DNA from: an uncultured Gammaproteobacteria bacterium
GTDB taxonomy: Bacteria > Pseudomonadota > Gammaproteobacteria > CAWCPV01
Direction: 5' to 3'
Assembly: GCA_963797555.1 (NCBI GenBank)
Contig: CAWCPV010000003.1
Location: forward strand, 352,001 to 416,000
Length of the DNA: 64,000 nucleotides
Positions 26,870-62,693 of the stretch are shown in pieces. The position numbers and the translations under genes are program-made. The notes beneath the pieces are model-generated. The model saw nothing but the letters and a program-made list of their open reading frames with translations, did not search any database and was not told where the DNA came from. Position 1 is the stretch's first letter. Each line of letters begins with the position of its first letter.

Positions 26870-27007
26870 GGGATACTGGCGCACGTGCTGCTGGTGAGCG
26901 GGCTGTGCGCGTGGGGGGCCCGCACGGGGCTGCTTTAGCGGCGGCGGACGCGGCGTCACTATAACCTGTACGTCATGAGCTTTGCGTTTCGGCTGGAGGC
27001 GCCGTGA
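26870..27007 (+). pseudogene. Remnant of 3' end of the membrane-protein gene (paralog of ~32660-32801)
   Basis: GCGTCACTATAACCTGTACGTCATGAGCTTTGCG..TCGGCTGGAGGCG.CGTGAGGCGCTA shared with 32745-32810. Confidence 0.8.
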
Positions 27008-28617
27008 GGCGCTACGCCTTGCTGGTGGGGGTCGATGCCTATGCAGATCGCACCATCCCGCCGCTGCGTTTTGCCGAGCGCGATGCGCAGGCGCTGGCGC
27101 GGGTGCTCGCCGAGCGGTACGGATTCGAGGTTCGGTGCCTGGTGGGGGAGCAGGCGCGGCGCGAGGTGATTATCAAGGTATTACGGACAGGGCGACTCTC
27201 GGAGAGTGTCGCTCCCATGGAGTCCAGCGATCAGTTTCTGTTCTTCTTCGCCGGGCACGGCGAGCTGGTGGGTAGCGACTATATTCTGCATCCATGGGAT
27301 GGCGATGCGGGGATCGACTTGCAGTCGATCACCATGAAGGCGATCCGCCGTCTACTGGGCCGCGACGTGCCGTGCGGGGAGTGCATGTGCATCCTGGATG
27401 CCTGCCGCAATCTGGCGCCGGCGGGGGCGCGGGGCGGACAGGCGCTCGACGCGCAGTCGGCGCGCGATATTGCGGCGGTGCCGCAGGCGGCGCCGGGCAA
27501 GCTCATCGAAGTGCTCTACGGCTGCCAGGAGGGGGGCCGCAGTTGGGAGGATGAGCGGCTCGGGCATGGGGTACTGAGCTACCATCTGCAGCAGGTGCTG
27601 GAGGGTTCCCCGCCGGGATCGTTCGAGGAACTGGCCGACCAGGTGAGCGATGCCATGAGCGGCTGGCGCCACGGGCAGTTCCAGCGGGTCGGGCAGGTGC
27701 CGCATCTCTACCCCCGACCCGGCCCTGGATTTCCCACAGCGCCTCACCCGTGCCCATATCGAACAGCGCCACCGACCCCCCCGACAATCACGCGGTCCTC
27801 CGCGGTCAGGATTACCTGCCGGATGACGCCCCGTCCAAACTGCCGCACCATACCTTGTTCGACAAGGCCCGGCGAGACCCACACCCGCGGCCGGATCACC
27901 ACCTCCAGGCGGATACGCCGCCGTGTGGGCCGACGGGCTGCGCGGTGAGCCCCGACGGTACGCTGGTGGCGGTGGGTGAAGGTACGGAGGTGCAGCTTTG
28001 GCATCCGGCCCGCGGCGAGCTGACGGCGCGCCTTCGGGGGCACCACGGCGGGGTGGAGAGTGTCGCCTTCAGCCCCGACGGACGGCTCGTGGCATCGGGC
28101 AGTTATGATCACACGGTGCGGCTGTGGGAGGTGGCAAGCGGCAAGGAGCCGAAGTGCCTTCACGGGCACGATGACTCAGTGGGGAGCATCGCCTTCAGCC
28201 CGGGTAAAGAGTGTGGCCGTCAGCCCCGACGGGCGGTGGCTCGCCTGGGCCGGGTACAGGACCGTGCGGCTGTGGGACTTGGCCAACGGCAGGGAGCTGA
28301 AGCGCCTTCAGGGGTATGACGGCTTGGTGGATAGTGTCGCCTTCAGCCCCGATGGGCGGCTGCTGGCCTTGGGCGGGCCTGACTGGACGGTGCGGCTGTA
28401 CGAGATAGCCAGCGGGAAGGAGCTGAAGCGCCTGCAGGGGCACGGTGGCGCGATCAGGAGGATAGCCATGAGCCTGGACGGGCGGCTGATGGCTTCGGGT
28501 AGCTACGACGGCACCATTCGGCTCTGGAAGACGGAGATCGCCAGCAGCGTGACGAAAGGGACCGCGGCTGAAGCGCAAGACGCTGCCGCGGCAGGGTTAG
28601 GCCAGAGTCCGCGCTAA
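27004..28617 (+). pseudogene. Caspase (peptidase C14)-WD40 protein, copy 1; interrupted by internal inversion and a frameshift
   Basis: FFAGHG and ILDACR dyad; WD40 repeats 27940-28530; 27712-27935 matches copy 2 on the opposite strand. Confidence 0.85.
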
Positions 28618-28618
28618 C

Positions 28619-28822
28619 ATGGATTGGCTGAAGTGGCTGGAGCTTCTTATCTGGACGATCCTTGTCCTCGGTATCCTGCGATGGGTATGCGACCGGCTGA
28701 TAGGCAGCGAAGCCTGCGACCAGACGGTCGGGCAGCTCGCTGCCGACTTCATCAAGTTCGTTCTGTTGGTCCCTTTCCGGCTGCTGCGCTGGATATTGCG
28801 TCAAGCAAGAAACGACAGGTGA
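28619..28822 (+). CDS. Small two-helix membrane protein
   Basis: ATG directly after copy-1 stop; hydrophobic; GTGA-coupled to next gene. Confidence 0.6.
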   Translation: MDWLKWLELLIWTILVLGILRWVCDRLIGSEACDQTVGQLAADFIKFVLLVPFRLLRWILRQARNDR

Positions 28823-30150
28823 GTTCGGTGCCCGACGAGTTCGAATCCAGGTACGTACGGCTGCTTGCCGAAAGAGGCCGCGACGTCGAGGGGAGACCGA
28901 TCGGTGCCGGCACGCCGGTAGTGGCACATCCTGTGGCTCCCGATGAATTCATGCAGGACACCCCGGAGACCCGCGCGACATTCGTGGAGAAGGGTTACGC
29001 CTGGACGTCGGCGACGCTCGAGCGCGTGATCGCGCAGGCCATCAGCCAAGACCACGAACTCGAGGACGTCTTGGATAACGCACAGGGAGCCAAGCAAGAG
29101 TTCGTCGGCAACATCGACGCCAATCTCGCGGGCGCCAAGGGGCAGCCGTTTCCGGAGTCGCACGTTTCTCTGTGGTCCTACGTGCTGCCATGGCAGCCGG
29201 AGATTACCTCTGTGGTCTCGCTGGGCACCCTGACGGAAACCGTGCTGCACGGGACGTGCAAAGAGCTGTGCGTCCCGGTCCAGGTGGAGCGCGCGGGCGT
29301 TTTCGCCGCAAGCATCACAAAGACGAACGAGGTGAGAATCTACGGGGTTCGGGGGGGGCGGGGCCTGTGGGTGCATGTCGTTTCGGGATTTGTGACACCG
29401 CTAACCTACCTGAGCGGGGGCAGAATCGGCGTGAAAGCGCCGGACGCGGCGGTCGTCGAAGTGTTGCGTGACAGCTATCTCGCGTGGGCGAAGGCTCGCC
29501 CGCCTCGTGGAAGGCACCCGCAGTACACTTACTTCACTCTCGGGAGCCTGCTGCACGGGGATTCGCAGACGATGGGAAGCCGAAGCGGGCGGGACTGCGT
29601 ACTCTATTCTTACTATCATAGGGGAGGCGAGTGGGCACCCGGTAACCCGCCGTCGACTTCCGAACCCCCTTCGGTGCAGGATTTCATCGACCGTCTCCTG
29701 CCAGAGACCGCGGACCGTCGAACGTCCAAGATCAAGGCGCTCATCGACACGCAAATCGGAGAGCAGTGGGGCAGCGTCACCGTGAACAAGGTGGCACGGG
29801 CGACCGGGTACCTCCCCAGAGCCGTCCGTAATGCGCTGCTGCGTCTGCAGCGGGAGGGGCCCTATCACCTGTACATGGCCGGAAGGGAACTGGCGGTCCG
29901 CGCGGCGGTGCCGGGCGAACGGGCTGACATCACAGAGAACACGTTCGAGCGTGGGTGGCTGCGTAGTCATGCCTGGTCCATGCTAAGCATGGCGCTAGGC
30001 GTCGGTGCTTGGGCCCTCAAGGGCATCTTCATGGGCGTCGGGATTCACGCCTATGACCTAGTGCTCGTGGGGGCCGTTGTTTACGTTGCGAACCTTATCG
30101 GTTTGGCGGTCAAGCAACGGGCATTGGATGACCGGGAGCGTGCGTCATGA
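28819..30150 (+). CDS. Hypothetical protein with possible winged-helix region and two C-terminal TM helices
   Basis: Long ORF coupled at both ends (GTGA/ATGA); VTVNKVARATGYLPRAVRNALLRL; hydrophobic C-terminus. Confidence 0.75.
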   Translation: MSSVPDEFESRYVRLLAERGRDVEGRPIGAGTPVVAHPVAPDEFMQDTPETRATFVEKGYAWTSATLERVIAQAISQDHELEDVLDNAQGAKQEFVGNIDANLAGAKGQPFPESHVSLWSYVLPWQPEITSVVSLGTLTETVLHGTCKELCVPVQVERAGVFAASITKTNEVRIYGVRGGRGLWVHVVSGFVTPLTYLSGGRIGVKAPDAAVVEVLRDSYLAWAKARPPRGRHPQYTYFTLGSLLHGDSQTMGSRSGRDCVLYSYYHRGGEWAPGNPPSTSEPPSVQDFIDRLLPETADRRTSKIKALIDTQIGEQWGSVTVNKVARATGYLPRAVRNALLRLQREGPYHLYMAGRELAVRAAVPGERADITENTFERGWLRSHAWSMLSMALGVGAWALKGIFMGVGIHAYDLVLVGAVVYVANLIGLAVKQRALDDRERAS

Positions 30151-30765
30151 GCAGACATGGGCTCGGCGAGCAACTGTACGTGCTGATCGGGAAGCTGGGT
30201 CAATGGCTCAGGCTCCGGCCTGCGGAGATGGATCGGCTCATGCGTCTCCGTGCTCGGGTGACGGAATCGCTGGCCGCAAATCAGGATCGGCTCGACGTGC
30301 TCAAAGAGGAGATAAGCAGCATCGAGAAGCGGCTGTTACGTCTAAAGGGTGATCTGAGATCGCGCCCGCGGTGAGACCAAGGAAATCATCGGGCGCGAGG
30401 TCGCGCTGTCGTTCCAGTCCCTTGATGGTACGCGCCCTCGACAGGACATCATTATCCAGAATATTGCGGCGCTCACGGCGACCCTGCGCAAGATCGACGA
30501 AGCCATCGATGCGCAGCACCGTGGGGTGAGCGAGTTGGACCTGGACGACCTGAGTTTCGAGGTCGAAGACCGCTTCGTCGAGGTCCAGCGCCGCGACGTT
30601 GCGCTGCGCGATCTCATCAAGGTTCGGTATTCCCCGCCTGCCGCAGAGGCTCTCAACGTCGCCGGTCGGCTTGCCGAACTGGAGGGCGCCGAGACGAACA
30701 GTGTTCCCGAAGGATTGTCCGCCGCCACGCAGAAGAGGCTTCGCGAACTGGATGCGGAGGATTAG
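30147..30765 (+). CDS. Coiled-coil protein, PspA/Snf7 (ESCRT-III)-like (frameshift ~30355)
   Basis: Joined frames give ~205 aa all-helical protein: helical hairpin, acidic ELDLDDLSFEVEDRF, terminal ..QKRLRELDAED. Confidence 0.55.
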
Positions 30766-30908
30766 GGTGATCGTGGTGCAGCTACCCAATGAATCGTGGG
30801 GGGCCGGACCCCGGTACTCGACTCCGTGTCGCGCGAGGGGTCCAAGCGCAGACAGCGTGATTCAGTTCCGGGGCCGCGTCGTGCGCGGGCTATGCGAGGA
30901 GATCGAGA

Positions 30909-31938
30909 ATGACCTTCTTTGACCTTTTCAAGTCTCAAAAAGATCGGGACCGGGACAGGGAGAAGCGTGGAACGTTATCTCGAAGATGCGTACGGACTCA
31001 TCGAGATAGCCGAAGAGCTCCGGGTCAAGGCTCGCGCCAAGCCGGCGCTGGTCCACGAAACCCATTACGCGGACGACGAGTCGTCCTCGCGCTGGGTGAT
31101 CGAGCAAAGACCCGAAACGAGGCTGGATGACGTCGCCGGATTGGAAGAAGTCAAAGAGGTCGTGCGCGATACGATCATCCTTCCCCTGCGCAAACCGGAT
31201 GTCTACGAGCGTTTTCGCGTGAGACCGGGCGGCGGTGTTCTCATGTATGGACCGCCGGGGAACGGAAAGACCTATATTGCCCGGGCTATCGCCGGTGAGC
31301 TGGACGCAGCCTTCATTGCCGTCGACCTTGCCGCCGTGAAGAGCAAATACGTCGGGGACACGGCCAAGAACCTGAGGAGCATTTTCGACGAAGCTCTCCG
31401 GCACGACAGCGCGGTCATCTTCCTCGACGAGGTGGACGCCCTGTTGTCTCGCCGGGGTAACCGTCGGGTCGATTCTGTACCCCAGTTCCTCATGCTGACC
31501 GACGGGCTGGTCAAGACCGAGCGGTGTTTGTTGCTGCTCGGAGCGACCAACCAGCCATGGACCCTGGACGATGCCGTCCTCCGTCCGGGGCGCCTGGGTA
31601 TCCATCTCTATGTCGGGCCGCCTGACGCCGAGGCGAGAGAGGGAATCCTTGCCATTCACATGAGGGGGGCTCCGATGGCGGAGGACGTGTCCTTTCCCGA
31701 TATTGCCTCCAAGACCGAAGGGTACAGTGGCGCCGACGTTGCTGCGGTGTGTCACTCCGCCAAGATGATGGCAATCAAGCGGCAGATCGCTACCGGCAAC
31801 GACGAGCAGGTCACTCAGACCGATCTCCTCAAAGCTCTGGAAGTCATTGCCCCAAGCACGTCTCCCGCCTTGCTCGAGGATTTCGAGCGCTGGCGGAAAC
31901 TGCGTGCCCGGCCCAGTGAGGACGACGAGCAGGACTGA
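30909..31938 (+). CDS. Vps4/CDC48-type classical AAA+ ATPase (N-terminus frameshifted or partly deleted)
   Basis: LDDVAGLEEVK, YGPPGNGKT, SKYVG, IFLDEVD, GATNQPW.LD.AVLRPGR, TEGYSGADV. Confidence 0.9.
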
Positions 31939-31951
31939 CGGTTCGGGGCAC

Positions 31952-32801
31952 GTGGGATCGCGCGGATCTGGACTGGTAGGCCCGATCGGGACGATCGCCC
32001 TGATCCTGTTCCTGGCGCTGCAGGCGTGGGAATACTTCGGTCCGCAAAAGCCGGACATCAGCCCCGCCAGAAAACGGGTGGCCGACCGGGTGGTCGGCAT
32101 GATCGTCGAGGATCTGCGCGACGCGCACGTCACTATCCGCCATGCGGCCCTGCTGCACCTCGCCAACGACCCGTCCGATTATTTCACCGACCGGCTACGG
32201 AGTGTCCTCGCTGAGTCCGGGGTGGCAGGTCTGCAGGATCGGACCTTTGGCGAGAAGCTGCGCGGCGTTTCTGCGAATGCAGGAGCCGGCCTATGGAAGT
32301 TTGGCCAAGGTGCTCAAGGCGGGACGGCGGCGCGGCGCGGACTATGTCATTTTTGGAGTTATCGACACATTCGAGTCGTCCCGGGAGGGCGCTCGCATCG
32401 ATGTGGAGGTGAGCGCGGCGGACGTCGCGAAGGGGGCGGTGGTCTTTGCGCATCGTTATCACGAGAAGCTTTCCCCGGGACTTCTCGCCAGTGTAGCGGT
32501 TCAAGATCAGGTGCAGGCGGTCGGCGCGCTGAAGCGGTTTCTGGCCTGGTCGCTGATCGTGCTGCTGCTGCCGGTATTCACCATCGGTTTTATCCGCGGC
32601 ATGGTGCGGCGGGAATCGAATGCCGCCAATGCGGTAACCTTGGCGATATACACCGGTGTGGATGCGATACTCGCCTACCTGCTGCTGGTGCGCGGGTTAT
32701 CCGCGTGGGGGCCGGTGCTGGCGTGGTTGGGGGCGGTGGGGGCGGCGTCACTATATAACCTGTACGTCATGAGCTTTGCGGTTCGGCTGGAGGCGTCGTG
32801 A
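31952..32801 (+). CDS. Membrane protein with periplasmic CsgG/FlgO-like alpha/beta domain and C-terminal TMs (frameshift ~32265)
   Basis: N-terminal TM, GRRRGADYVIFGVI...IDVEVSAADVAKGAVV, three C-terminal hydrophobic helices. Confidence 0.65.
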
Positions 32802-34972
32802 GGCGCTATGCCTTGCTGGTGGGGGTCGATGCCTATGCCGATCGGGCCATCCCGCCGCTGCGTTTTGCCGAGCGCGATGCGCAGGCACTGGGAAGGGTGC
32901 TCGCCGAGCGGTACGGATTCGAGGTTCGGTGTTTGGTGGGGGAGGAAGCGCGGCGCGAGGCGATCCTGAATGTATTAGGGAGCGGGCGGCTCTCGGAGCA
33001 GGCCGTGCCCATGCAGGCGGGCGATCAGTTTCTGTTCTTCTTCGCCGGGCACGGCGAGCTGGTGGGTAGCAACTATGTCTTGCACCCGTGGAATGCCAAG
33101 GCGGGGGCCCATTATATGTCGATCACCAGGATCGACATCAGCTCTCTGCTGGGCAGCAACGTGCCGTGCGGGGAGTGCATGTGCATTCTAGATGCCTGCC
33201 GCAACCTGGCGCCAGCGGGGGCGCGGGGCGGACAGGCGCTCGATGAACGGTCGGCCCGAGATATCCAGGCCGTGCACCGGGAGGCGCCGCACAAGCTCAT
33301 CAAGGTGCTATACGGTTGCAGCGAGGGCGAGCGGAGCTGGGAGGACGAGCGGCTGGGCCAGGGGGTGCTCAGCTACTATCTGAAGCGGGTGCTGGAGAGT
33401 GCAGAGGTGGCGTCCTTCGAGGAGCTGGCCGAGCGGGCGGCCGATGAGATGCGAAAAAGTTGGCGCCATTGGGAGTTCGAGGGAGCAACCCAGGTGCCGC
33501 ACATATACGGGCCGACCACGGGTCGGCGAATTCGCCTGGAGGTGGCCCGGCGGCGGGTGTGGGTCTCGCCGGGCCTTGCCGAGCAGGGCATGGTGCGGCA
33601 ATTCGGCCGCGGTGTCATCCGGCACGTGCTTCTGCCCACGGAGGACCGCGTGATCGTGGCGGCTGGGGGGTCGGTGGCGCTGTTCGATATGGACACAGGC
33701 GAGGCGCCGTGGGAGATCCAGGGCCGGGTCGGGGGGTGCGCGGTGAGCCCCGACGGTGCGCTGGTGGCGGTGGCCGAGGGTACAGAGGTGCAGCTTTGGC
33801 ATCCGGCCAGTGGCGAGCTGAGGGCACGCCTTCGGGGGCATCCACGCCCCGTGACCAGTGTCACGTTCAGCCCGGACGGGCGGTGGCTCGCCTCGGGCAG
33901 TGACGACGAGACGGTGCGGTTGTGGGAGGTGGCGAGCGGCAAGGAGCTGAAGCGCTTTGAGGGGCACGGTGGCGGGGTGGAGAGTGTCGCCTTCAGCCCC
34001 GACGGCCGGTGGCTCGCCTCGGGCAGTGACGACCGGGCGGTGCGGTTGTGGGAGGTGGCGAGCGGCAAGGAGCTGGAGCGCTTTGAGGGGCACGATGATG
34101 TGGAGCGGAGCGTCGTTCTCAGCCCCGACGGACGGTGGCTCGCCTCGGGCAGTGAGATCGAATACGACGACCGCTACGACGATTGGGCGTCGGTGCCGTT
34201 GTGGGAGGTGGCGAGCGGCGAGGAGCTGAAGCGCTTTGAGGGGTACGGTGGCCGGGTGGAGAGTGTCGCCTTCAGCCCCGACGGCCGGTGGCTCGCCTCG
34301 GGCAGTTGGGACAAGACGGTGCGGCTGTGGGAGGTGGCGAGCGGCGAGGAGCTGAACGGCTTTGTGCACGGTGGCGGGGTGGAGAGTGTCGCCTTCAGTC
34401 CCGACGGCCGGTGGCTCGCCTCGGGCGGTTGGGACGAGACGGTGCGGCTGTGGGAGGTGGCGAGCGGCAAGGAGCTGAAGCGACTTGAGGGGCACGGTGG
34501 CGGGGTGGAGAGTGTCGCCTTCAGCCCCAACGGCCGGTGGCTCGCCTCGGGCAGTGACGACGAGACGGTGCGGTTGTGGGAGGTGGCGAGCGGCAAGGAG
34601 CTGAAGCGCTTTGAGGGGCACGGTGCCGGGGTGCGGAGTGTCGCCTTCAGCCCCGACGGCCGGTGGCTCGCCTCGGGCGGTTGGTTCGGCACGGTGCAGT
34701 TGTGGGAGGTGGCGAGCGGCAAGGACCTGAAGTGGCTTGACGGGCGCGGTGGCCGGGTGGAGAGTGTCGCTTTCAGCCTCGACGGCCGGTGGCTCGCCTC
34801 GGGCAGTTGGGACAAGACGGTGCGGTTGTGGGAGGTGGCGAGCGGCGAGATGCTGAAGCGCTTTGAGGGGCACGGTGCCGGGGTGCGGAGTGTCGCCTTC
34901 AGCCCCGACGGCCGGTGGCTCGCCTCGGGCAGTTTTGACGGCACGGTGCGGCTGTGGGAAGTCAGGGGATAA
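32798..34972 (+). CDS. Caspase (peptidase C14)-WD40 repeat protein, copy 2 (intact)
   Basis: ALLVGVDAY, FFAGHG, ILDACR; nine near-identical ~42-aa WD40 repeats (SVAFSPDGRWLASG..D.TVRLWE). Confidence 0.93.
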   Translation: MRRYALLVGVDAYADRAIPPLRFAERDAQALGRVLAERYGFEVRCLVGEEARREAILNVLGSGRLSEQAVPMQAGDQFLFFFAGHGELVGSNYVLHPWNAKAGAHYMSITRIDISSLLGSNVPCGECMCILDACRNLAPAGARGGQALDERSARDIQAVHREAPHKLIKVLYGCSEGERSWEDERLGQGVLSYYLKRVLESAEVASFEELAERAADEMRKSWRHWEFEGATQVPHIYGPTTGRRIRLEVARRRVWVSPGLAEQGMVRQFGRGVIRHVLLPTEDRVIVAAGGSVALFDMDTGEAPWEIQGRVGGCAVSPDGALVAVAEGTEVQLWHPASGELRARLRGHPRPVTSVTFSPDGRWLASGSDDETVRLWEVASGKELKRFEGHGGGVESVAFSPDGRWLASGSDDRAVRLWEVASGKELERFEGHDDVERSVVLSPDGRWLASGSEIEYDDRYDDWASVPLWEVASGEELKRFEGYGGRVESVAFSPDGRWLASGSWDKTVRLWEVASGEELNGFVHGGGVESVAFSPDGRWLASGGWDETVRLWEVASGKELKRLEGHGGGVESVAFSPNGRWLASGSDDETVRLWEVASGKELKRFEGHGAGVRSVAFSPDGRWLASGGWFGTVQLWEVASGKDLKWLDGRGGRVESVAFSLDGRWLASGSWDKTVRLWEVASGEMLKRFEGHGAGVRSVAFSPDGRWLASGSFDGTVRLWEVRG
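33836..34960 (+). repeat. High-identity ~126-bp tandem repeats encoding WD40 units
   Basis: Repeated GGTGGCTCGCCTCGGGC and TGTGGGAGGTGGCGAGCGGC blocks. Confidence 0.95.
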
Positions 34973-36495
34973 CGGTTCTACCGGTGGGCTTGGGGGTCGC
35001 GCCGAGCCGGGCACACCCGCCGGTTAGATGCTTTCTGGTGTCGTCCCTGCCATGGCCGCTTCGGCTCGCATTTCCGAAACTCACTCGGGACCAACACGGG
35101 CACGCCTGGGATCTGGTACTCGAAGGCGCGTGGGAGATCGTCGAGGGGCAGGTCTTCCTCGAAAATTTCGCTGTTCACCATGTCTTCGCCGAGCAGCCGC
35201 TGCGTAACTCTCTGGTCGAATCCTGGCTGACGGATAGGTTGGGCTACCGGGTGACCGACTTCGTGTCGGACAGCGAACCTCGCCCGACCGTGAGCGACCT
35301 CCAGGACTTGCCGGCAAGGTGGTGGCAAGCCCAGATCAGCAGGTGGCTCGCCGAGTACGGCATATCCGTCGATCTCACGGCCGCGCGCCTCGACAGCGCC
35401 GATGCCGCGCGAGCCGAAGAACAGCGCAGGCACCGTGCGCGCCTCGAGCAGGTGGAGATCGAGCACAAAGTCGAACGGGAAATGGAGCTGCGTCAGCTCG
35501 CCGCCGAGGCGGATTACGAGAACGAAAGAGCGCGTATCGAGCAGAGCGAGCGGGCGAGCGAGAGCGAGCGGGCGAGCGAGAGCGAGCGGCAGCACCAGCT
35601 CAAGTGTCTGGGGTTGCGGCACCAGAAGGAGGCGAAGGAGCTGGAAGTCGAGTTGGAGAAGCTGCGCTTCCAGAGCGAGCGGTCGCAGCTCGAGCACGAG
35701 GTGGCCGTAGCGGAGCTGCGCGCCGACCTGGAAGGCGCTCAACGGGCCGGCCGCAGACAGGAACGGCTGGAAGTGGACCACGCAGCCCTGCTGCACCGGT
35801 TACACCAGGTCCTGAACACGCTCGGCCGTTTCGATGCGCTCTCTCAGCAGCTCGCCAGCGCTAACGTCCGGGAGGCACACCTGGCGGCGGAGTGGCTCAC
35901 CTCTCCTGCATTCGGGTTCAGGCCGGAAGAGCTTCTCGTGTCGGGCGCTCCTTCGGCGGCTCAGAGACTGAAGCAGTGCCTGCGCGATAAGGCGGCGGAG
36001 CAGGAGCACCAAGTCGCGCTGAGCATGGCACAGCTCACCACCCGCGATATCGGGACGGCGGAGGTCAGGGCTCTGCGTATCAACAGCCCCCTCCGCTTCG
36101 AGATCAATTCGGCACGGGCCGGATACGTCACCGTCATCGACATCGGAACGAGCGGAACCGTTTACCTGCAGGTCCCCAACGCATATGTCGGTACAGCACG
36201 GGCGCGGGTATCGGCCGAACGCAGCTACCATATTCCGGGTCCAGAGCTGCTCCCAGGCGATGACCTGCTGGCGCACAGACTCGCTTACCTGGAGATCGGC
36301 CCGCCCGGATGGGAACACCTCGCCGTGGTGGTCAGCGAGCAGCCGCTCGTGCCCGACAGGATTGTCCGGCGCTCCCAGCCGACGAATCCATTCGTCAGCT
36401 TGTCCGCGTCCGAGGTCGACGAAATCCTGAATCGACTGATGGGATGGCCTGCAAGTGGCTGGTCGGCTGGCCTGCTCTCCTTCCTCGTAGAGTAG
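34954..36495 (+). CDS. Coiled-coil protein with SPFH-like N-terminal part and DUF4384-like C-terminal domain
   Basis: Long Glu/Arg-rich coiled coil; LRFEINSARAGYVTVIDIGTSG.VYLQVPN...PPGWEHLAVVVSEQPL. Confidence 0.7.
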   Translation: MGSQGITVLPVGLGVAPSRAHPPVRCFLVSSLPWPLRLAFPKLTRDQHGHAWDLVLEGAWEIVEGQVFLENFAVHHVFAEQPLRNSLVESWLTDRLGYRVTDFVSDSEPRPTVSDLQDLPARWWQAQISRWLAEYGISVDLTAARLDSADAARAEEQRRHRARLEQVEIEHKVEREMELRQLAAEADYENERARIEQSERASESERASESERQHQLKCLGLRHQKEAKELEVELEKLRFQSERSQLEHEVAVAELRADLEGAQRAGRRQERLEVDHAALLHRLHQVLNTLGRFDALSQQLASANVREAHLAAEWLTSPAFGFRPEELLVSGAPSAAQRLKQCLRDKAAEQEHQVALSMAQLTTRDIGTAEVRALRINSPLRFEINSARAGYVTVIDIGTSGTVYLQVPNAYVGTARARVSAERSYHIPGPELLPGDDLLAHRLAYLEIGPPGWEHLAVVVSEQPLVPDRIVRRSQPTNPFVSLSASEVDEILNRLMGWPASGWSAGLLSFLVE

Positions 36496-36496
36496 C

Positions 36497-37743
36497 ATGA
36501 CTCCCGGTCCGCGCGACTATCAGGAATCGCCCCGGTGAGTGCCCCGGAAGTCGTTCACGGACCGACAATGGCGCCAGAGACGCTTACGTTGGCCCAATAT
36601 CAGAGTCTTCGCCGAGTGCACCGACCGCACCCCGGAGCAGAGCCGGCGGAGCCTCGACTTTCCCCTGCTCGGGTTGTTCGGGGAGGTGGGCAGCTTGCTG
36701 AGTGCGCTGAAGAAGAAGCAGCGCGATGCCGACTCTTACATCGGGTATGCCCCGTCGGTGGTCGAGGAGCTCGGTGACGTTCTGTGGTATTTTGCGAGCC
36801 TCGCCACACGCGCTGACATCGCCCTGCCCGAGCTTGCGCGCAATGCAGTGCGGAACTGGAGTATACAGGACGATAAGCCAAGCGCGGTGGTCGTCACGTT
36901 CGACGCCCTCCAACCAGACTTGGCCAACGACGGTCCGAAGCCGCCGGAAGCTTTCAGCGGAGCCTAATGCGGCTCGCCGGCGAGGTGGGCATTCTGATGG
37001 CGGATGTCGCCGCGGGCCGTCTGGCGGACGATCGGGCCGCCTTGTTCGTGCACATGAGCGCGGTCTTCACGTCGCTGGTAGCCGCCGCCAACGACGCGGG
37101 AGTATCCCTGGCGGATGCGGCTCATCGCAATCTGTGCAAGACATTCGATCGCTGGCCGCCCGATAAAACCTATCCGAGTCTTTTTGACGACGGGTTCGAC
37201 CGAGACGAGCAGATCCCGCGCAGGATCGAGGTGCACATTTTCGAAAAGACCGTTGCGGGGGCAACCTACGTCTTCCAAAGATGCAACAACATCAACATCG
37301 GCGAGCGCCTGACGGACAATAAGATCGAACAGGACGACTACCGATTCCACGATGTCTTCCACCTCGCCTATGCGGCGGTGCTGGGCTGGTCCCCGGTCAT
37401 CCGATGCCTGTTCAAATCAAACGCAAGAGCAAGCCAGAGGTCGACGAGGCCGAGGACGGGGCGCGCGCGGCGCTTATCGAAGAGGGTATCTCGACCTGGG
37501 TCTTCAATCACGCCGCCCGGCTGAACTTCTTCGAGAATCTGACGTCGCTGGATTACGGCCTGCTCAAGGCGGTGCACGAATTGGTTGTCGGCTACGAGGC
37601 CGAACGCTGTCCGTTGTGGCTGTGGGAGGAGGCAATCCTGCAAGGCTATGCGGCGTTCAGGGAGCTTCAGAAGTATCGCTGCGGCTTGGTAGTCGCCGAC
37701 CTCCATGGAGAGAACCATTATCTTTGAGAAAGCACCGGAATGA
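36497..37743 (+). CDS. MazG-like NTP pyrophosphohydrolase with MazG_C-like domain (several frameshifts)
   Basis: LLGLFGEVGSLL..LKK..RD, EELGDVLWY, IGERLTDN....DDYRFHDVFHLAYAAVLGWSPVIR, DEAEDGARAALIEEG. Confidence 0.85.
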
Positions 37744-38384
37744 GAGCTACCGCCTTCATCGACGCGCTGAGCGCGATATCGTTGAAGGCGGTTTTCAATC
37801 CCTACGCCGATCGCTGCGGTGTTCATGACCGCGAGGATGCTCCGGTTCTGCGCCGCTCCAATCTCCGAGTTACCCTCGAAGCCGTCCAGCACATAGATGT
37901 CCGTGCCATGTGGATCGCGCGGGATCTCGGTTACCGTGGCGGTCGCCGCACCGGGCTTCCCTTGACCGACGAGGTACACTTGCCTGCGTTCAGTCAGGCG
38001 TTGGGCGGGGTGCCGTTATCGCGGGCGACGATCGGGCCCCCCGTCGCCGAGCGCACCGCGGGCGTTATTTGGGATACGTCCTCGCTCGGATCCAGCAGCC
38101 GGTTTTTCTGTGGAACGTCTTTCCCTTTCATCCCTTCGAGCCGGGCGACCCCTTATCCAACCGCTGCCACAGCCGTAAAGAGCGGCTCGCCTGCGACCGG
38201 CTGCTGGTCGAATTGCTCAGCATGCTGGCGCCCGAGAACGATCGTCGCAATCGGTAGAGATGCCCGGCTTGCCCTCACCGAACTCGGCGTACCGTGCCGC
38301 TCTGTGCGTCACCCGAGCTATGGCGGGCAAACAGCCTTCGCCAGAGAGATTGGCGAGCTGTACGGACTCAACGCGGCGGCATGA
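37740..38384 (+). CDS. Uracil-DNA glycosylase-like protein (compensating frameshifts)
   Basis: VFNPY, DLGYRGGRRTGLPLTDE, AERTA, LWNVFPFHP...SNR (alternative frame), VAIG, VRHPSYGG. Confidence 0.8.
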   Translation: MRATAFIDALSAISLKAVFNPYADRCGVHDREDAPVLRRSNLRVTLEAVQHIDVRAMWIARDLGYRGGRRTGLPLTDEVHLPAFSQALGGVPLSRATIGPPVAERTAGVIWDTSSLGSSSRFFCGTSFPFIPSSRATPYPTAATAVKSGSPATGCWSNCSACWRPRTIVAIGRDARLALTELGVPCRSVRHPSYGGQTAFAREIGELYGLNAAA

Positions 38385-39213
38385 ACCGAAGCCGGCTCTG
38401 GCTTTTGATTAGCCACCGTCGTCTGCTGCCGTGTGCGCTCGCAGGTCCGCAACAGATCCTCGACCTCTGACCGGCGCCACTTTTGCGCCTCAACCTCCGC
38501 ATGTGTCGAGATGATCGTTAGAGCTCCGACCTCGACTCCCGCCTCCAAGCCGACAAAGGCCATGAGGTTGCCCAAGCCGACCAGGTTCCCGAGCAGCCGC
38601 TGGATATAGTAGTGATTGCGGTACAGCGCGGTCAGCGTCAGCCGGTTCTGCGGATCGAGCTTGAAACTGAGAAAACTGAGACACTGCCGATTCATGACGG
38701 GCGACGGAATCCCGCTCCGGGTCGTAGATGCCGATGTCGAGCGCAGGGTCCGAAATCGTCAGTTCATAGACATTGCGAAAGGTCCTTCCCTTCCCTTGGA
38801 CGTGTGCTCGAAGCTTGGCCACTAGGTCGGCCAAGGGATTGATGACTCGACCGTCGGCCGTCCGACGCCGGATCATGCGCTCGAAGTACCGCCCCCAGTC
38901 ACGCAGTCGCCCGCCTGACACGCGGGTAAACCGTCTCCAGATACACGTCGTAAAAGCTCGGGGCTCCATGCCGCTGGTAGAGCTGGTTCGGGAAGATGGT
39001 GTTGGCTACCGAGGCCAGCGGGTAAGCGCCGTGATGCCGCAAGAAATCGTCGAGCTGGTCAGCGAGCTGGTTGTCGGTCGCGGACCAATCCAGCGGGCTC
39101 TCCACGTCGACGATAACGTTATGAGCCTCGTGTCCCGGATTGGCGTCCACCGCCCGAACGGCAGCCAACCACGCCGAGGCGGCACTGTTATGAGGTTCGA
39201 CGGCCAGGTACAT
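38318..39213 (-). CDS. Thymidylate synthase-like protein (two frameshifts)
   Basis: Joined frames: VANTIFP, GRYFERM, QCLSFLSFK, LTALYRNHY...LLGNL.GL, ISTHAE, matching the TS Cys/RS.D/N/H layout. Confidence 0.7.
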
Positions 39214-39865
39214 GTGTCAGGTCCTCGGTCAGCTCGATGGCCTCCAGTAAACGGGGTTCAAGATAGCACTCGTTAATCCAGGCATGTCCCTCGATACCCC
39301 AGCCCGTACCCCAGCTATTGCGGGCAAGGACAAGGCGATCTCCTCCGCGCATACCGTAGCCGACACCCACCAGCGCGTGCCGTCGAGTCGGGTCCACGGG
39401 CTCGTCGGCAGCAACGACACCATCTCCGTCCGGCAGGTAGAAGGCACCCGACAGATTCATCGCGACGACCACTGGGGTCCCTCGGTCCAAGCACTGAAGG
39501 ATGTCCTCCACGCGAAGGGACGCGCGCTGGCCCGCACGGCGGAAAAGCGGCCCAACCTTGTCCGGGGGATGCCAGTCGCCCAGATTGACCGGCAGCACCG
39601 CCAGGTATGGCCACGCGGCTTCATGCGGCTGACCATCATGGCGCAGGGTCGCAACCATTCCCTCCACCGTGGAGCCCGCATGCGGATTCCCACCACACCG
39701 GCGTACTGCGTGGTAGTACGCATACTCGCAGCAGAGCGGTTCCCAGCCCGGGCGCAACGCGGCATGCGCATCGCTCGCGGCAAAGGCGAGACAAGTCGGG
39801 CGGAGACCCTGGTCGCGGACCGGACCGAACAGAGGCCGCAGGTCGCACACGACCTCGAGGAGCAT
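39188..39865 (-). CDS. Papain-like (C1 family) cysteine peptidase
   Basis: DLR..FGPVRDQGLRPTCLAFA, HALVGVGYG, RNSWGTGWG..GH; reads in frame with the upstream gene here. Confidence 0.9.
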   Translation of the reverse strand: MLLEVVCDLRPLFGPVRDQGLRPTCLAFAASDAHAALRPGWEPLCCEYAYYHAVRRCGGNPHAGSTVEGMVATLRHDGQPHEAAWPYLAVLPVNLGDWHPPDKVGPLFRRAGQRASLRVEDILQCLDRGTPVVVAMNLSGAFYLPDGDGVVAADEPVDPTRRHALVGVGYGMRGGDRLVLARNSWGTGWGIEGHAWINECYLEPRLLEAIELTEDLTHVPGRRTS

Positions 39866-40876
39866 CAGGCTGCCTCGCGCGGTAAGCCGCCGCTCTGCTT
39901 GCGACAAGCCTTCCTCCTCCGGCCCGGTAAGATCGTAATCCACGTTGAAGGCCATCAGCGCCTTGTCGCGGGGGAGCCACGGCCGCCGCTCGGCCAGAAC
40001 CAAGTGCCCGCTCTGGCGCATCCTCGAGCGCGCGGTAATCCGCCGTGTCACATGAGCACCCACCGTGCTCTCGCCTGGCCCCTCGCGCTCGTCGCGAACT
40101 ATAGCGAAGCCCGTCTCGTCCAGCTCTTCAAAGCTCCAAAGATAGCCAGAGCCGCTATGCTCACTGAGCTGGAGCACGAACAGGTCAGAGCGGCTGCCTT
40201 GTAGAAGCGCGCCTTCATCGCGCTCGGTAAGCAGCCACACGTCTACCCACCAGCTCGGCGGAACGTATCCGCGAAGCAGATCCTTCTTGATCTCCCGAGG
40301 CTGCACGTCCAGAAGTGGCCGGAGAGTCTGTCGCCTGATGATGCCGTGCCGCAGTAGCGTCCAACAGGTTGCCTCGTAGCTCGCGCCAACGCGCAGCGCG
40401 AGCTGATAAACATTGCGGGGGTTCTCCATAGACCGGGGCGTCCAGCCCTGGCGTCTGAAGTGCGCCGCGAAGAGCCACTTGGGTAGCAAAAACTCGGCCG
40501 CGAAGGCATCCGCCTCCAGCTCCTGCTGCTCGTAATCCGGCCGTGCCGAAAAAAGCGATCTGCGCAAGATCGTGTCGTCATCGAGGCTAGGGCGGTGACC
40601 CAGTCGAGCATGGCCCAGTTCGTGCGCCCCCGTGAAGCGCTGTACGCTCAGCGGCCGTTGCGTCGTGACGAGAATCCCCGGGATAGGCTCCGAGAGATAC
40701 ACGCCGAGCAGCCCATCCATGGGCTTGAAGAGCAAGGGGATGCCCATGTGCACGATGGCGTCGAAGACATCGATCCGGCCCCCTTCCGCCTCGATGCGCA
40801 CCCGCATGTCGAACTGGCGATGTAGCCGCGCCGCCTCACGTGTGCCGCGCAGAATGCCAGTGCGTGCGTCAGCCAT
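39865..40876 (-). CDS. ImmA/IrrE metallopeptidase fused to chagasin (I42)-like cysteine-protease inhibitor domain
   Basis: QRFTGAHELGH, ELEADAFAAEFLLP; C-terminal LSEHSGSGYLW...VGA...ERRPW. Confidence 0.85.
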
Positions 40877-41264
40877 CTCCTGCTTGCTCCGCCTGTGCCC
40901 GGGCCCGCAGGTAGTCGGCAAAGCGGCTTAGCTCCTGGCGGTCCCGATCCGACAAGCCGGCTGCGGCTCTCGCCAGATGCGCAATGTCCTCTGGGAGGCC
41001 CGATTCAACCGGCGCCTCGCCCGTGAAGTAACCCACGGGCCGCTTATACAGCTCTGCAAGCCGCTTCAGCTCCAGAGCATCCACGCGCCGCTGGCCGGTC
41101 TCGATATTCGAGAGAGCTGAACGTGGGATCCCGAGACAGCGTGCAACTTCTTCCTGGGATAGACCAAGATAGTCCCGGGCATCGCGCAGGCGCGCCCCAA
41201 GCTGCTCCCGAGTCTGGATCTCAACGTTCGCAAAACCGACAGATTGGTCACTGTTTGCGCTCAT
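40869..41264 (-). CDS. XRE-family HTH regulator
   Basis: LRDARDYLGLSQEEVA..LGIPRSALSNIETGQR. Confidence 0.93.
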   Translation of the reverse strand: MSANSDQSVGFANVEIQTREQLGARLRDARDYLGLSQEEVARCLGIPRSALSNIETGQRRVDALELKRLAELYKRPVGYFTGEAPVESGLPEDIAHLARAAAGLSDRDRQELSRFADYLRARAQAEQAGDG

Positions 41265-41589
41265 AGGCTGACTCCCCGTGGTGTACGCTCCACTCGCGCT
41301 CTAACTTTGGCGCCAAATCGCTCACGAGCTCGTCCACGCTCCCGTAACCTCCGGGCTGTACGAGGCTCAAAGGCAGCTCAAACGACAGCTTGGACTCCAA
41401 CTGCACCAAGAGCTCTACTATCACTAAAGAGTCGATGCTCGGCTCAAAGCCCATACGGGCCGACCCGCCGCCACCGAGAGCCATCTCGGCACTCGCCATG
41501 TCCGCCAGGAAAGTTCGGATGCACGCATCGACCTCCTCCGCCGGAAAGGCGGGGGCGGTCGCGGGCGTCTGTAGTGCAGTGGTTACCAT
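41248..41589 (-). CDS. Acyl-carrier-protein-like protein
   Basis: IDSLVIVELLVQLESKLSFELP...SVDELV phosphopantetheine-site-like motif. Confidence 0.65.
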   Translation of the reverse strand: MVTTALQTPATAPAFPAEEVDACIRTFLADMASAEMALGGGGSARMGFEPSIDSLVIVELLVQLESKLSFELPLSLVQPGGYGSVDELVSDLAPKLEREWSVHHGESAYERKQ

Positions 41590-41604
41590 AGAAGCACCAC
41601 GTTA

Positions 41605-41651
41605 GTTCGAATATCAGACAAATGATAGCCGATTATGTCTGAAAAACAAAC
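41605..41651. promoter_or_regulatory. Imperfect inverted repeat, putative XRE operator
   Basis: GTTCGAATATCAGACA-15 bp-TGTCTGAAAAACAAAC in the AT-rich region upstream of the ACP-XRE-IrrE operon. Confidence 0.55.
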
Positions 41652-41883
41652 TCTCCATGGACAGAACGCGAGCTTGATGCTGGACGAAAGGCAGCGGAAG
41701 CCAGGGAGCGCGCAGGGATCGGTGCAGTGCGTGAACGATGTGGAATCTCGGGCTTCCGGTGCGGCACGATGCCCTCGGATCCCTGGACAGCACTGTGTTG
41801 CATCCGGGCTACGATGTGGGGGTCACCCGCTGAGTCCCGGATTGAGAGCTGGACACGGACGCGCTCGGTGGCATACAGCGCGG

Positions 41884-44411: not shown

Positions 44412-45408
44412 ATGAGCCCAGACCAAGACCTTGCACCTTACCGCAATTTGGGGCCGGACAACATCCTGGACGCTGTGGAAGCCACCGGCCTGCGCTGGAA
44501 TGGCCGGCTGCTCCCACTGAACAGCTATGAGAACCGCGTCTACCAGGTCGGCATCGAAGGAAGCCAACCCATCGTGGTGAAATTCTACCGGCCGGAGCGA
44601 TGGTCCGACGAGGCCATTCTGGAGGAGCATCGCTTCACCCTCGAGCTGGCCGAGCAGGAAATCCCGGCCGTGCCGCCCCTACCGGATGACCAGGGAAACA
44701 CGCTGCGGCGACACGGACCATTTCGGTTCGCGGTGTACCCGCGGCGCGGAGGACACCCGCCCGAGCTGGACAATCCCGACCACTTGGAGCAGCTCGGCCG
44801 CTTCCTGGCCCGCATCCACAACGTGGGCGCGGTGCACCCATTCCTCCACAGGCCCACCCTGGAGATCCAGCACTTCGGAGTGGAATCGTATCGTTACCTG
44901 CTGCAGGAGCGGATCATCCCGGATGATCTCAGCCCCGGCCTACAGCAGTCTGGCCGAGCATCTCATCGAGCGCGTCCGGGACTGCTACGCCCGGGCGGGC
45001 AACGTCCAGTATCTGCGGCTGCACGGTGACTGCCACCCGGGCAACATCCTGTGGACCGAGCAAGGCCCCCATGTCGTGGACTTCGATGACGCCCGTATGG
45101 GGCCCGCAGTCCAGGACCTGTGGATGTTGCTGTCGGGCGAGCGTCCATACATGACCGCACGGCTCGCCGATCTGCTGGAGGGATACACGATGTTCCGTGC
45201 GTTCGACGCGCGCGAGCTAAATCTGATCGAGGCCTTGCGGACCCTGCGCATGATGCACTACGCGGCCTGGATCGCCAGGCGCTGGGAGGACCCCGCGTTT
45301 CCTCGCGCCTTCCCATGGTTCGGCAGTTCCCGATACTGGGAGGACCACATCCTCTCCCTGCGGGAGCAGGCAGCGCTCATGGACGAGCCGCCTCTTTACT
45401 GGGACTGA
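44412..45408 (+). CDS. srkA: Stress response Ser/Thr kinase SrkA/RdoA (frameshift ~44935)
   Basis: LNSYENRVY, VKFYRPERW, HGDCHPGN, DFDD, QDLWM, WEDPAFPRAFPWF. Confidence 0.93.
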
Positions 45409-46827: not shown

Positions 46828-47604
46828 CTAGGAACGGTCAGCCCCTGGTGACGCGCCGGGACTCTTTCCGGAGCCGTCGCGGCAGCGCACCGAGATGCCA
46901 AGCCCGCCGAGCGCGTGCTCCATCTGCGCCTCCCAGCCTCGATTGGCGGCTGGGCTGGCGGGACTCGGATGGGGTACGAGGCCGACGCGGACCGAGGCGG
47001 GATTCAGGGCCGCTGCGACCCGCTGCGCCGCGAACCGCCCGACCCCGACCACGTAACGCGGTGTCAGACAGGCGACACTGTGCCCGAGGGCGGCGTCGCA
47101 AAGGCCGAACAGCTCTTCGCGGTCCTTTGCCGGCAGCCGGTCCGGGGTGAGATTGCGGCCGCTCGCCTCCAGGAAGCACAGAGGACAGTAGTTGAGCACG
47201 AAAAACTGCGCGAAGAAGTGCTCCGGCGCACCGCAGGCCGCTCGCGCCCAGCCCCACAGCCGCCGCCCGCTGACCTCCTGCCGAGCGCAGGCGAATCCCT
47301 GAACGGGACGTCGCGGATGCTGGGATGCCGGCTTGCGCACAGGCGCCCGGATGCCCAGCCAGTCGCGCACCATGTGCACGTCTCCGAAGGGGACGCCGGT
47401 CTGGACCATACCCCAAGGCCCCGGATTCATACCGACCAAGACCACCTCGCGGCGTCCCTGTCCGAACCTCCTGATGTAGTCCCCGTGGGCGGCCCAAGCA
47501 TAGTCGAGAGGGTTGTATACATGAGCCACCGGAGCACCGAAGCGCAGCCGTCCGGCGGCCGCCCCCAGACGCCGGGCGATCTCCAGCAAGTCCGCATGCG
47601 CCAT
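46828..47604 (-). CDS. SMUG1-like (family 3) uracil-DNA glycosylase
   Basis: YNPLDYA, GMNPGPWGMVQTGVPFG, EVSGRRLW, NYCPL, HPSPASP. Confidence 0.92.
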   Translation of the reverse strand: MAHADLLEIARRLGAAAGRLRFGAPVAHVYNPLDYAWAAHGDYIRRFGQGRREVVLVGMNPGPWGMVQTGVPFGDVHMVRDWLGIRAPVRKPASQHPRRPVQGFACARQEVSGRRLWGWARAACGAPEHFFAQFFVLNYCPLCFLEASGRNLTPDRLPAKDREELFGLCDAALGHSVACLTPRYVVGVGRFAAQRVAAALNPASVRVGLVPHPSPASPAANRGWEAQMEHALGGLGISVRCRDGSGKSPGASPGADRS

Positions 47605-62550: not shown

Positions 62551-62670
62551 ACAGCTACAGCTACAGCTAATGGGGTCCAGCTACAGCTACAGCTACAGCT
62601 ACAGCTACAGCTACAGCTACAGCTAACAGCTAACAGCTAATGGGGTCAGACACGTAACAGCTAATCAGCT
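62551..62670. repeat. (ACAGCT)n hexamer tract interleaved with AATGGGGTC motifs
   Basis: Directly visible tandem ACAGCT units. Confidence 0.85.
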
Positions 62671-62693
62671 AATGGGGTCAGACACGATAATCT

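Follow-up and report, generated by a model that had tools for sequence, protein, structure and literature searches.

We describe a gene cassette in a 64,000-nucleotide stretch of DNA from an uncultured Gammaproteobacteria bacterium (GenBank assembly GCA_963797555.1, contig CAWCPV010000003.1, positions 352,001 to 416,000). This stretch is called the window below, and coordinates refer to its own numbering. The cassette spans 36568-41652: a MazG gene carrying a MazG_C domain and a gene related to uracil-DNA glycosylase (UDG) lie on the plus strand, and an operon of four open reading frames (ORFs) converges on them from the minus strand. The window copy is broken or mis-assembled, and the cassette is most likely an uncharacterised anti-phage system. 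Its features are the following:

36568-37727 (+), MazG-like protein (tandem all-alpha NTP pyrophosphohydrolase, dimeric-dUTPase-like) fused to MazG_C, from Pfam and tblastn
37740-38384 (+), UDG-superfamily glycosylase-like gene, identified through an intact homologue that scores above the Pfam UDG cut-off
39213 to about 38411, the frame staying open on to 38318 (-), gene of thymidylate-synthase fold (TS-like), from tblastn and Foldseek
39188-39871 (-), papain-family C1 cysteine peptidase, from Pfam Peptidase_C1
39872-40876 (-), ImmA/IrrE (M78) metallopeptidase with a C-terminal chagasin-type I42 domain, from Pfam
40869-41264 (-), XRE-family helix-turn-helix (HTH) repressor, CapH-like and intact, overlapping both adjoining genes
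41248-41589 (-), small, acidic, intact protein resembling acyl carrier protein (ACP-like), which opens the operon; the serine of its Asp-Ser-Leu motif is invariant
41604-41652 (no strand), imperfect inverted repeat with half-sites TCAGACA and TGTCTGA, a candidate XRE operator 15-63 nt upstream of the ACP-like start

All the genes named in the initial annotation, which had been made from the letters alone, are present in the places, order and orientation that it gave. The 'IrrE' and the 'inhibitor' of its list are one protein, an M78 peptidase with a chagasin-type I42 domain; in the window a single 577-aa ORF (40921-39188, -) matches Peptidase_M78 (E 2e-12), Inhibitor_I42 and Peptidase_C1 (E 2e-8) in Pfam. 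The MazG, UDG-like and TS-like calls also stand, with the correction that each gene is spread over two or three reading frames. Scans for sigma-70 promoters and terminators at both cassette ends found none.

A scan of species-representative genomes gave at least 430 relatives among 600 pattern matches, of which the best 80 loci were kept; their genes were counted with the intact proteins of locus L036 as queries. The XRE, ImmA-I42 and C1 genes occur in all 80 loci, the TS-like gene in 79, the ACP-like gene in 76, MazG-MazG_C in 73 and the UDG-like gene in 63, and the genes that flank the cassette in the window (a caspase-WD40 protein, a DUF4384 protein and an antiporter) in none. Collapsing the loci at 95% ImmA-I42 identity left 53 distinct cassettes: 34 hold all seven genes, nine hold all but the UDG-like gene, and more than half of the ten others lie on short contigs. 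The exact order and orientation seen in the window recur in 33 of the 53, so the association of these genes goes far beyond chance, and the grouping that had been proposed from one sequence is very strongly borne out by this neighbourhood search.

The hosts include Alphaproteobacteria, Acidobacteria, Planctomycetota, Nitrospirota, Gemmatimonas, Binataceae and Betaproteobacteria. The ImmA-I42 proteins form a tight family of about 336-338 aa with 1516 matches at E<=0.001 among 8000 candidates scored; the TS-like proteins, a distinct family, fall at 50% identity into 1590 clusters at E 1e-3, 1074 at 1e-10 and 384 at 1e-30. TS-like matches are found on 25 plasmids, 15 of them conjugative, and the cassette also turns up on three IMG/VR contigs. 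Among 50,697 isolated-phage records none matches the TS-like family, and where phage MazG proteins align with MazG-MazG_C they cover no more than its first quarter to half. Among 40 genomes of the window organism's class none holds the cassette, the one weak hit being a C1-like match at E 3.8e-4. The cassette is self-contained, horizontally mobile and present in Bacteria and Archaea. Two candidate readings were dropped: a prophage lysogeny switch, since the flanks are not conserved (0/80), and a phage hypermodification cluster, since no phage record holds the TS-like gene.

Several copies sit in settings of their own. A sphingomonad segment of up to 17.7 kb is 99.6-99.99% identical in nine records besides L005; the records are labelled Sphingopyxis, Sphingomonas and Sphingosinicella (L005-L013, L016, L021), and three more are 96.7% identical. 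This segment is a recently spread mobile element. On the Tardibacter plasmid pHSL4 the cassette stands between relaxase and type IV secretion genes, and AbiE, relaxase, integrase and insertion sequence elements adjoin plasmid copies.

Annotated plasmid variants show which genes form the core. Two Streptomyces plasmids carry MazG, then ACP-like, HTH, ImmA (298 aa, no I42) and TS-like genes in a row, then a 'nucleotide kinase domain' protein; both ACP-like members are named 'acyl carrier protein' in RefSeq. A Nostoc plasmid has a small ORF followed by HTH, ImmA (289 aa, no I42), 'thymidylate synthase', this same 'nucleotide kinase' and MazG-MazG_C genes. On a Haloarcula plasmid a dTMP kinase and the 'nucleotide kinase' stand beside a row of 4'-phosphopantetheinyl transferase, small ORF, HTH, ImmA-I42, C1 and TS-like genes, and on a Mycobacterium plasmid the order is TS-like, holo-ACP synthase (Pfam ACPS 1.5e-12), HTH, ImmA-I42, C1 and MazG. 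A variant on a Burkholderia plasmid (B. glumae, L084) was also examined. The core is the ACP-like protein, XRE, ImmA, the TS-like protein and MazG-MazG_C; the accessories are the C1 peptidase, paired with I42 on ImmA, and either the UDG-like glycosylase or a DNA kinase that acts on 5-hydroxymethyldeoxyuridine (5-hmdU). Two plasmid copies also hold a possible extra small component: a DUF4031 gene after MazG_C in B. glumae (L084 7737-8051, -) and a 65-aa ORF after MazG in pHSL4.

The 'nucleotide kinase' of the plasmid variants is Pfam HMUDK_hel, the 5-hmdU DNA kinase (5-HMUDK; E 2.5e-112 and 2.2e-66). This kinase is found in 13 of the 80 loci, all lacking the UDG-like gene, which is present in 63; no locus has both, and the four that have neither lie on contigs of 2-10 kb. 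The UDG-like glycosylase and the 5-hmdU DNA kinase are therefore strictly alternative and interchangeable in the cassette. 5-HMUDK phosphorylates 5-hmdU in DNA, according to the accessible parts of two papers (PMC8989533, PMC5889632). Its exchange with the UDG-like protein points to 5-hydroxymethyluracil (5-hmU) made by the system itself, not only to uracil or 5-hmU brought in by a phage. The initial annotation had suggested phages with uracil or 5-hmU as a target.

The same kinase, together with the plasmid settings, could be read in another way: as a DNA-modification module of a plasmid or an integrative and conjugative element, switched on at SOS or transfer to mark or protect the element's DNA, and the cell's, against restriction, in the manner of phage thymidine hypermodification. 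A TS with 5-HMUDK is the first half of that phage pathway, 15 of the 25 plasmid records with a TS-like gene are conjugative, pHSL4 holds the cassette between its relaxase and secretion genes, and ImmA/ImmR pairs control mobile elements, as the available part of a preprint states (bioRxiv 10.64898/2026.05.16.725639). Against this, no aGPT-Pplase or other downstream hypermodification gene was noticed in the annotated variants, where no dedicated search for one was made. The glycosylase alternative removes a base and does not build on it, none of the 50,697 phage records matches the TS-like family, and a modification introduced by way of the dNTP pool could not be confined to the DNA of the element. 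We regard this module as very improbable.

The operon opens with what looks like a repressor-protease switch. The XRE protein matches Pfam HTH_31 (9e-14) and HTH_3 (1e-12) and PADLOC capH (1.5e-12), and the M78 domain matches PADLOC capP at 3.8e-14 over profile positions 32-148 of 242 only. The two genes are adjacent in 80 of 80 loci, and the HExxH residues H85, E86 and H89 are invariant in 31 sequences (AHELGH in the window protein). In CapP a cysteine-switch loop keeps the protease inactive until single-stranded DNA (ssDNA) pushes the loop aside, and the C-terminal GAF sensor domain forms the ssDNA groove, as far as the accessible text of the preprint goes (bioRxiv 10.64898/2026.05.16.725639). 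The ImmA loop between HExxH and E119 holds no conserved Cys in the 31-sequence alignment.

The ACP-like protein, which precedes this pair, resembles acyl carrier proteins in profile search, as the initial annotation had it: its profile matches 83 ACP sequences in the PDB (best E 3e-4) with the DSL attachment site aligned, while the Pfam PP-binding scores, 17.9 and 13 bits, stay below the cut-off of 20.8. Ser64 of the Asp-Ser-Leu motif is invariant in 43 sequences; the window protein has a pI of 4.4, and 34 of 43 members have a pI below 6. AcpS-like matches occur in three kinase-type loci (L034, L035 and L038), and phosphopantetheinyl transferase genes of AcpS or Sfp type lie inside the variants L034, L035, L038, L086 and L087, the archaeal one included. 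Indirectly, these embedded genes suggest that the ACP-like protein needs its prosthetic group.

In a modelled three-chain complex of ImmA-I42, the TS-like protein and their ACP-like partner, the score ipSAE reached 0.75 against 0.19 for the best control. That control, in which ImmA-I42 was replaced and the ACP-like protein left with the TS-like one, is not evidence against an ACP-TS-like contact. Of 80 solved complexes 58 attain this ipSAE mark, and of 110 mismatched pairs 2 do; these counts apply only roughly to a three-chain job built on our own alignments. At least 33% of contacts are common to the runs, and the partner's pLDDT is at least 76. The modelled contacts join ImmA residues 5-20, 133-147 and 177-181 to ACP residues 38-44, 63-75 and 84-89, placing helix II with the DSL serine against ImmA. 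This modelled place on the ImmA/M78 domain makes the ACP-like protein look like a component of the switch, and the model supports its being a subunit there. The initial annotation had offered 'carrier or protease substrate'; the modelled position fits no metabolic carrier, nor necessarily a substrate.

Of 62 distinct loci, 45 have a palindrome, TGTYNRA-N1-5-TYNRACA, upstream of the ACP-like gene, compared with 9 of 783 control windows; the pattern was chosen after the data had been inspected. Upstream of MazG it occurs in 0 of 60. The operator-like site is thus limited to the operon that ends in the TS-like gene, which does not bear out the 'two-tier protease control' of the whole locus that had been proposed earlier. 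An operator on the TS-containing operon only is as expected if the TS-like enzyme is the dangerous step; with the TS-like gene inside the repressed operon and the other enzymes outside, the layout fits this enzyme as the committed one.

Two of the operon's proteins bring a protease and its likely inhibitor together. The I42 domain scores 28.9 bits in the window, 30.3 in L036, 43.5 in Haloarcula and 27.9 in Mycobacterium against a cut-off of 27.2. All 34 C1 peptidase sequences compared, the window's among them, keep Q19, C25, H163, N183 and W185, the first four of which we take to be the papain catalytic residues. The peptidase starts a few residues ahead of the Gln, hence without a prodomain, and no signal peptide was seen in it. 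I42 was detected along with C1 in Haloarcula, in Mycobacterium and in the two copies scanned among the C1-bearing loci, those of the window and L036, and was not detected where C1 is absent, in Streptomyces and Nostoc; in B. glumae I42 went undetected although C1 is present. The chagasin-type inhibitors known so far mostly stand alone and act against the proteases of another organism.

Such a pair could by itself be an addiction module or toxin-antitoxin system, with C1 as toxin, I42 as antitoxin, XRE/ImmA as regulator and the nucleotide enzymes as passengers or regulators. The peptidase does lack a prodomain and keeps its active site, the inhibitor is fused to the regulator and co-occurs with C1, and natural ImmA-I42-C1 fusions exist (3 among 120 matches listed). 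But the Streptomyces and Nostoc variants, without C1 and I42, keep the ACP-like, XRE, ImmA, TS-like, MazG and HMUDK genes. The protease pair is therefore accessory and not core, and we hold this account to be more improbable still than that of a modification module.

The three nucleotide and DNA enzymes are known mainly by fold and conserved residues. The TS-like homologue from L036 gave an AF2 model with a pLDDT of 88.4, for which Foldseek returned 396 PDB matches at E<=0.001, the top one L. casei ThyA (9e-10). ThyA, the CMP hydroxymethylase MilA and a phage dCMP hydroxylase all matched at E 1e-9 to 1e-7 with probability 1.0, the TM score to MilA is 0.58, and identity to the PDB matches is 9-15%; in BFVD, phage TS and dCMP hydroxymethylases matched. 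Structure prediction thus agrees with the earlier call of a thymidylate synthase fold. The NCBIfam model TIGR03283 matched weakly (33.5 bits against a cut-off of 174.55). C176, in QC(L/M)SF, is invariant in 40 sequences and 14 distant ones, and both C176 and G207-N208 persist even in variants of 24-33% identity. The host carries a separate, ordinary ThyA.

In the window two pieces of the MazG gene match MazG_C (Pfam E 5e-33 and 1e-39), and the L036 protein matches it (PF18722) at 1.3e-80; the MazG domain, at 21.3-21.9 bits, falls just under the Pfam cut-off of 22. The L036 model (pLDDT 86.8) was aligned by VIA with the dimeric dUTPase of C. jejuni (Z 13.5, rmsd 4.1, 181 residues aligned), with a second dUTPase (Z 10.2) and with the MazG protein 1vmg (Z 7.7, rmsd 1.7, 80 aligned), a Z near 13 being only moderately telling for helical bundles. 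In the ESM Atlas this model returned only MazG_C clusters. MazG-C is termed a 'predicted nucleotide kinase' in the accessible text of DeWeirdt et al. (2026; PMC13092281).

Profile search confirms the UDG-like call. The intact homologue L036:10528-11178 scores 29.7 bits in Pfam UDG (PF03167) against a cut-off of 24.3, and the family profile weakly matches the family-4 UDG TM0511 (E 0.09). N124, H129, P130, R188 and S191 are invariant, and the invariant blocks RDLGYRGGRRTG, WN.FP.HP and R(HP)S align with the Asn and HPS motifs of the window's other UDG, which we take to be the motifs of the UDG family. That second UDG-superfamily gene, at 46828-47604 (-; Pfam UDG 7e-9), is unrelated to the cassette gene and probably the organism's own repair glycosylase.

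These enzymes would also suit a defence against phages that carry uracil or 5-hmU in their DNA, in which the system makes no unusual base: MazG would destroy dUTP and hmdUTP, the TS-like enzyme would restore dTMP, and the glycosylase or 5-hmdU kinase would attack phage DNA. The MazG part resembles dimeric dUTPases (Z 13.5 and 10.2), the UDG fold is kept along with the HPS and Asn motifs, 5-HMUDK acts on hmU DNA, and the invariant Asn of the TS-like family fits a uracil-type substrate by the Asn-uracil specificity rule of the TS superfamily. However, a harmless sanitising TS needs no operon controlled by a repressor and a protease, yet every variant has one; MazG, UDG and HMUDK lie outside the unit that bears the operator; and the host already has ThyA. 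A further, weak argument is that the validated E. coli system with a TS and a 5-hmdU kinase was scored on E. coli phages, as far as the available text of the report goes. A defence of this kind is, in our judgement, unlikely.

The reading we prefer, with a probability of roughly 0.45, is that of inducible synthesis of a dUMP substituted at position 5, probably 5-hydroxymethyl-dUMP; once the product is in DNA, the glycosylase or the kinase would act on it. Beyond gene content, folds and conserved residues, all the steps that follow are ones we infer. The XRE protein would repress the ACP operon from the palindromic operator, whose conservation is observed and whose binding is presumed, while the ImmA-type protease would be restrained with a holo-ACP-like protein bound to it, as in the modelled complex. 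Upon phage infection or DNA damage, ImmA would cleave XRE, as in CapP/CapH, ImmA/ImmR and IrrE/DdrO, and derepression would raise the level of the TS-like enzyme. From dUMP that the dUTPase-like MazG domain provides, this enzyme would produce a 5-substituted dUMP (most likely 5-hydroxymethyl-dUMP), which MazG_C would re-phosphorylate. The altered base would enter replicating DNA, mainly the phage's, where the glycosylase would excise it or, in the other subtype, the DNA kinase would phosphorylate it; either would block replication, in the manner of abortive infection. The prodomain-less C1 peptidase may be kept latent by I42 and act as a second effector or amplifier. The earlier idea of a pyrimidine-directed, inducible system with a protease switch thus survives as the most economical reading.

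A more specific form of this scheme adds a new trigger and joins all the parts into abortive infection by base poisoning. In it, the phosphopantetheinylated ACP-like protein would serve as a thiol 'cysteine switch' in trans for the ImmA/CapP-type protease, or as a prosthetic-group gate. Its release would derepress a dUMP hydroxymethylase that floods replicating DNA with 5-hmdU, the glycosylase or (in the sister subtype) the 5-hmdU DNA kinase would turn 5-hmdU into lethal lesions, and the papain-like protease, prodomain-less and held by chagasin, would fire as second effector. Taken jointly, these steps are quite unlikely.

Several results weigh against the production of a modified dUMP under such a switch. 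For the TS-like protein, Pfam Thymidylat_synt (PF00303) gave no match to the window pieces at E<=0.1 or to the L036 protein at E<=1, and its profile found nothing meaningful among PDB sequences (best E 0.7). In hhalign, C176 falls on the PC(H) Cys of the host ThyA at 0.4% probability, with the Arg/Asn register off by one. A product different from hmdUMP is conceivable, as is a protein that does no more than bind nucleotides. The MazG-MazG_C model had no Foldseek PDB match at E<=0.001, its VIA rows cover mainly residues 2-171, and the kinase role of MazG_C is a prediction quoted from a paper. As to the switch, the C-terminal GAF sensor of the CapP plan was not found in ImmA by sequence, the I42 domain standing there; with the part of CapP beyond the peptidase domain missing, the ssDNA trigger of CapP/IrrE may not apply. 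The ipSAE value measures the confidence of a model, not binding; the choice of palindrome pattern after inspection counts here too, and the window itself, with only two everted half-sites, does not match that pattern. The window copy, with its roughly eight frame changes, may do nothing in its own organism. No published description of the cassette was found; the work of Iyer et al. 2013 and Burroughs et al. 2015, which reportedly defined 5-HMUDK and related nucleotide-centred systems, lay outside the search and may sketch the neighbourhood.

The frame changes bear on the window copy itself. About eight single-nucleotide changes fall within 5 kb: three in MazG, two each in the UDG-like and TS-like genes and one at the end of ImmA. 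The MazG gene lies in four frame segments with shifts near 36612, 36950 and 37410, and by tblastn intact homologues switch frames 2>1>3 along it; the N-terminal shift near 36612 and the true start, ATG 36568, were derived by comparing ORFs with the family consensus. The UDG-like ORF stays open through two compensating changes (about 38070 and 38240), its conserved WNVFP..HP core being read in another frame (ORF 37910-38257), and the TS-like gene runs through three frames (-2>-3>-1, tblastn) with shifts near 38905 and 38700. These broken frames explain why the window's UDG-like and TS-like ORFs have no Pfam match. ImmA-I42 proteins normally end in LLEAA in the alignment; in the window a 1-nt change about 6-10 codons ahead of the family's usual stop removes that stop, and ImmA-I42 is thereby fused in frame to C1. 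In nearly all of 80 other loci the two are separate ORFs of about 336-338 and 226-233 aa.

We lean towards consensus errors of a long-read metagenome assembly, the real genes being whole. Every change is a single base, homologous frames show no in-frame stop, the copy is as similar to intact homologues as these are to one another, a 98%-identical protein of another assembly sits in yet another frame at the same spot, and the genome assembly has 20 contigs and is 84.6% complete. That the copy is a dead relic with true frameshifts, where nothing works, is somewhat less probable but a serious contender: the roughly eight changes in 5 kb compare with one in the 20 neighbouring ORFs scanned with Pfam. 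The junctions are single-base, and none lies in a long homopolymer. No public reads spanning a junction were found; two soil-metagenome runs hold 9% of the words, in contigs of 151-315 bases. The one other case is an APH-family phosphotransferase gene at 44412-45408 (+), whose two halves lie in overlapping frames and match Pfam APH positions 4-134 and 149-231, so frame changes are not confined to the cassette.

The surroundings look like a defence island. Directly ahead of the cassette come genes for a caspase-domain protein (27004-27948; PADLOC caspase 1e-12), an IetA-like AAA ATPase (30919-31938; PADLOC 2e-34), a caspase-WD40 protein (32798-34972; 3e-11, nine WD40 stretches) and then the DUF4384 protein (34954-36495); the region 27004-36495 resembles a second conflict-type cluster. 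Farther off, G+C drops to 0.48-0.53 at 59001-63000 against about 0.65 elsewhere in the window, which may mark foreign DNA; an Rfam scan of this end (57000-64000) gave no matches. In E. coli, DeWeirdt, Mahoney and Laub (2026; PMC13092281) report, in the text available, a validated defence whose domains are TS, dNMP kinase, 5-hmdU kinase and NMAD, and list MazG, MazG-C, UDG and HTH in predicted, unvalidated defence systems. The caspase-like and IetA-like neighbours, the mobile-element neighbours of plasmid copies and this validated precedent agree with a defence reading.

PADLOC-DB 2.0.0 has no family for the TS-like, UDG-like, MazG-MazG_C or ACP-like proteins, searched with the window pieces and the intact L036 proteins. 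PADLOC 2.0 gives only CapH/CapP-like and RmrA-like matches for XRE and M78, in line with the earlier remark that the locus was not recognised as a characterised system, and no experimental study of the cassette was found in the literature searched. The cassette joins two known kinds, CapH/CapP-regulated immunity and nucleotide-modifying defence. Its unusual parts are the ACP-like partner of the protease, the cytoplasmic chagasin-papain pair and the glycosylase/kinase alternative.

If the preferred reading holds, cells would turn the chemistry with which phages disguise their DNA (a thymidylate-synthase-type hydroxymethylase, a dUTPase-like enzyme and a 5-hmdU DNA kinase) into a weapon or alarm under a repressor/protease switch, and prokaryotic immunity would come to include a carrier protein and a chagasin-papain pair, neither of which is known to serve in it. 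The family is large and mobile, with 1590 TS-like clusters, at least 430 loci, conjugative plasmids and a range from Bacteria to a haloarchaeon, and so has a bearing on many organisms; the strict choice between glycosylase and kinase offers a direct handle on the system's product. For the window itself the meaning is smaller, its own copy being broken or badly assembled.

Among known systems, those validated or predicted with DefensePredictor (PMC13092281) have TS, 5-hmdU kinase, MazG, MazG-C, UDG and HTH domains in common with the cassette; the available text of that paper names no ACP-like, ImmA, chagasin or C1 component, its one mention of a peptidase being M15. Phage thymidine hypermodification proceeds in the order dUMP hydroxymethylase, 5-hmdU DNA kinase, aGPT-Pplase. 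The cassette resembles it in pairing a TS-superfamily enzyme with 5-HMUDK (13 of 80 loci and the Nostoc, Streptomyces and Haloarcula plasmids), and MazG_C and HMUDK_hel adjoin in Pfam numbering; in contrast, the cassette is not phage-borne, the window subtype has a glycosylase in the kinase's place, and the whole stands under an XRE/ImmA switch with an ACP-like protein. With ThyA and the dCMP and CMP hydroxymethylases the TS-like family has the fold in common, and its invariant Cys may stand where ThyA has PCH, but its N-terminal half is divergent and the folate-binding residues are not recognisable.

The likeness to chagasin and papain-type C1 peptidases consists in an I42 domain above the Pfam cut-off and a C1 peptidase with its Q/C/H/N residues, occurring together. 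Unlike the known ones, the predicted pair is cytoplasmic, bacterial or archaeal and encoded in one operon, with the inhibitor a domain of a regulatory metalloprotease and the peptidase devoid of a prodomain. With CapH/CapP, ImmR/ImmA and DdrO/IrrE, finally, the cassette shares an XRE repressor beside an M78 zinc peptidase with HExxH, the pair heading a conflict-type operon with an operator-like palindrome upstream. Its peptidase carries the chagasin I42 domain where CapP has the GAF sensor and has no conserved loop Cys, whereas CapP has the cysteine-switch loop; and an extra ACP-like gene, present in 76 of 80 loci, stands before XRE, its product modelled on the peptidase.

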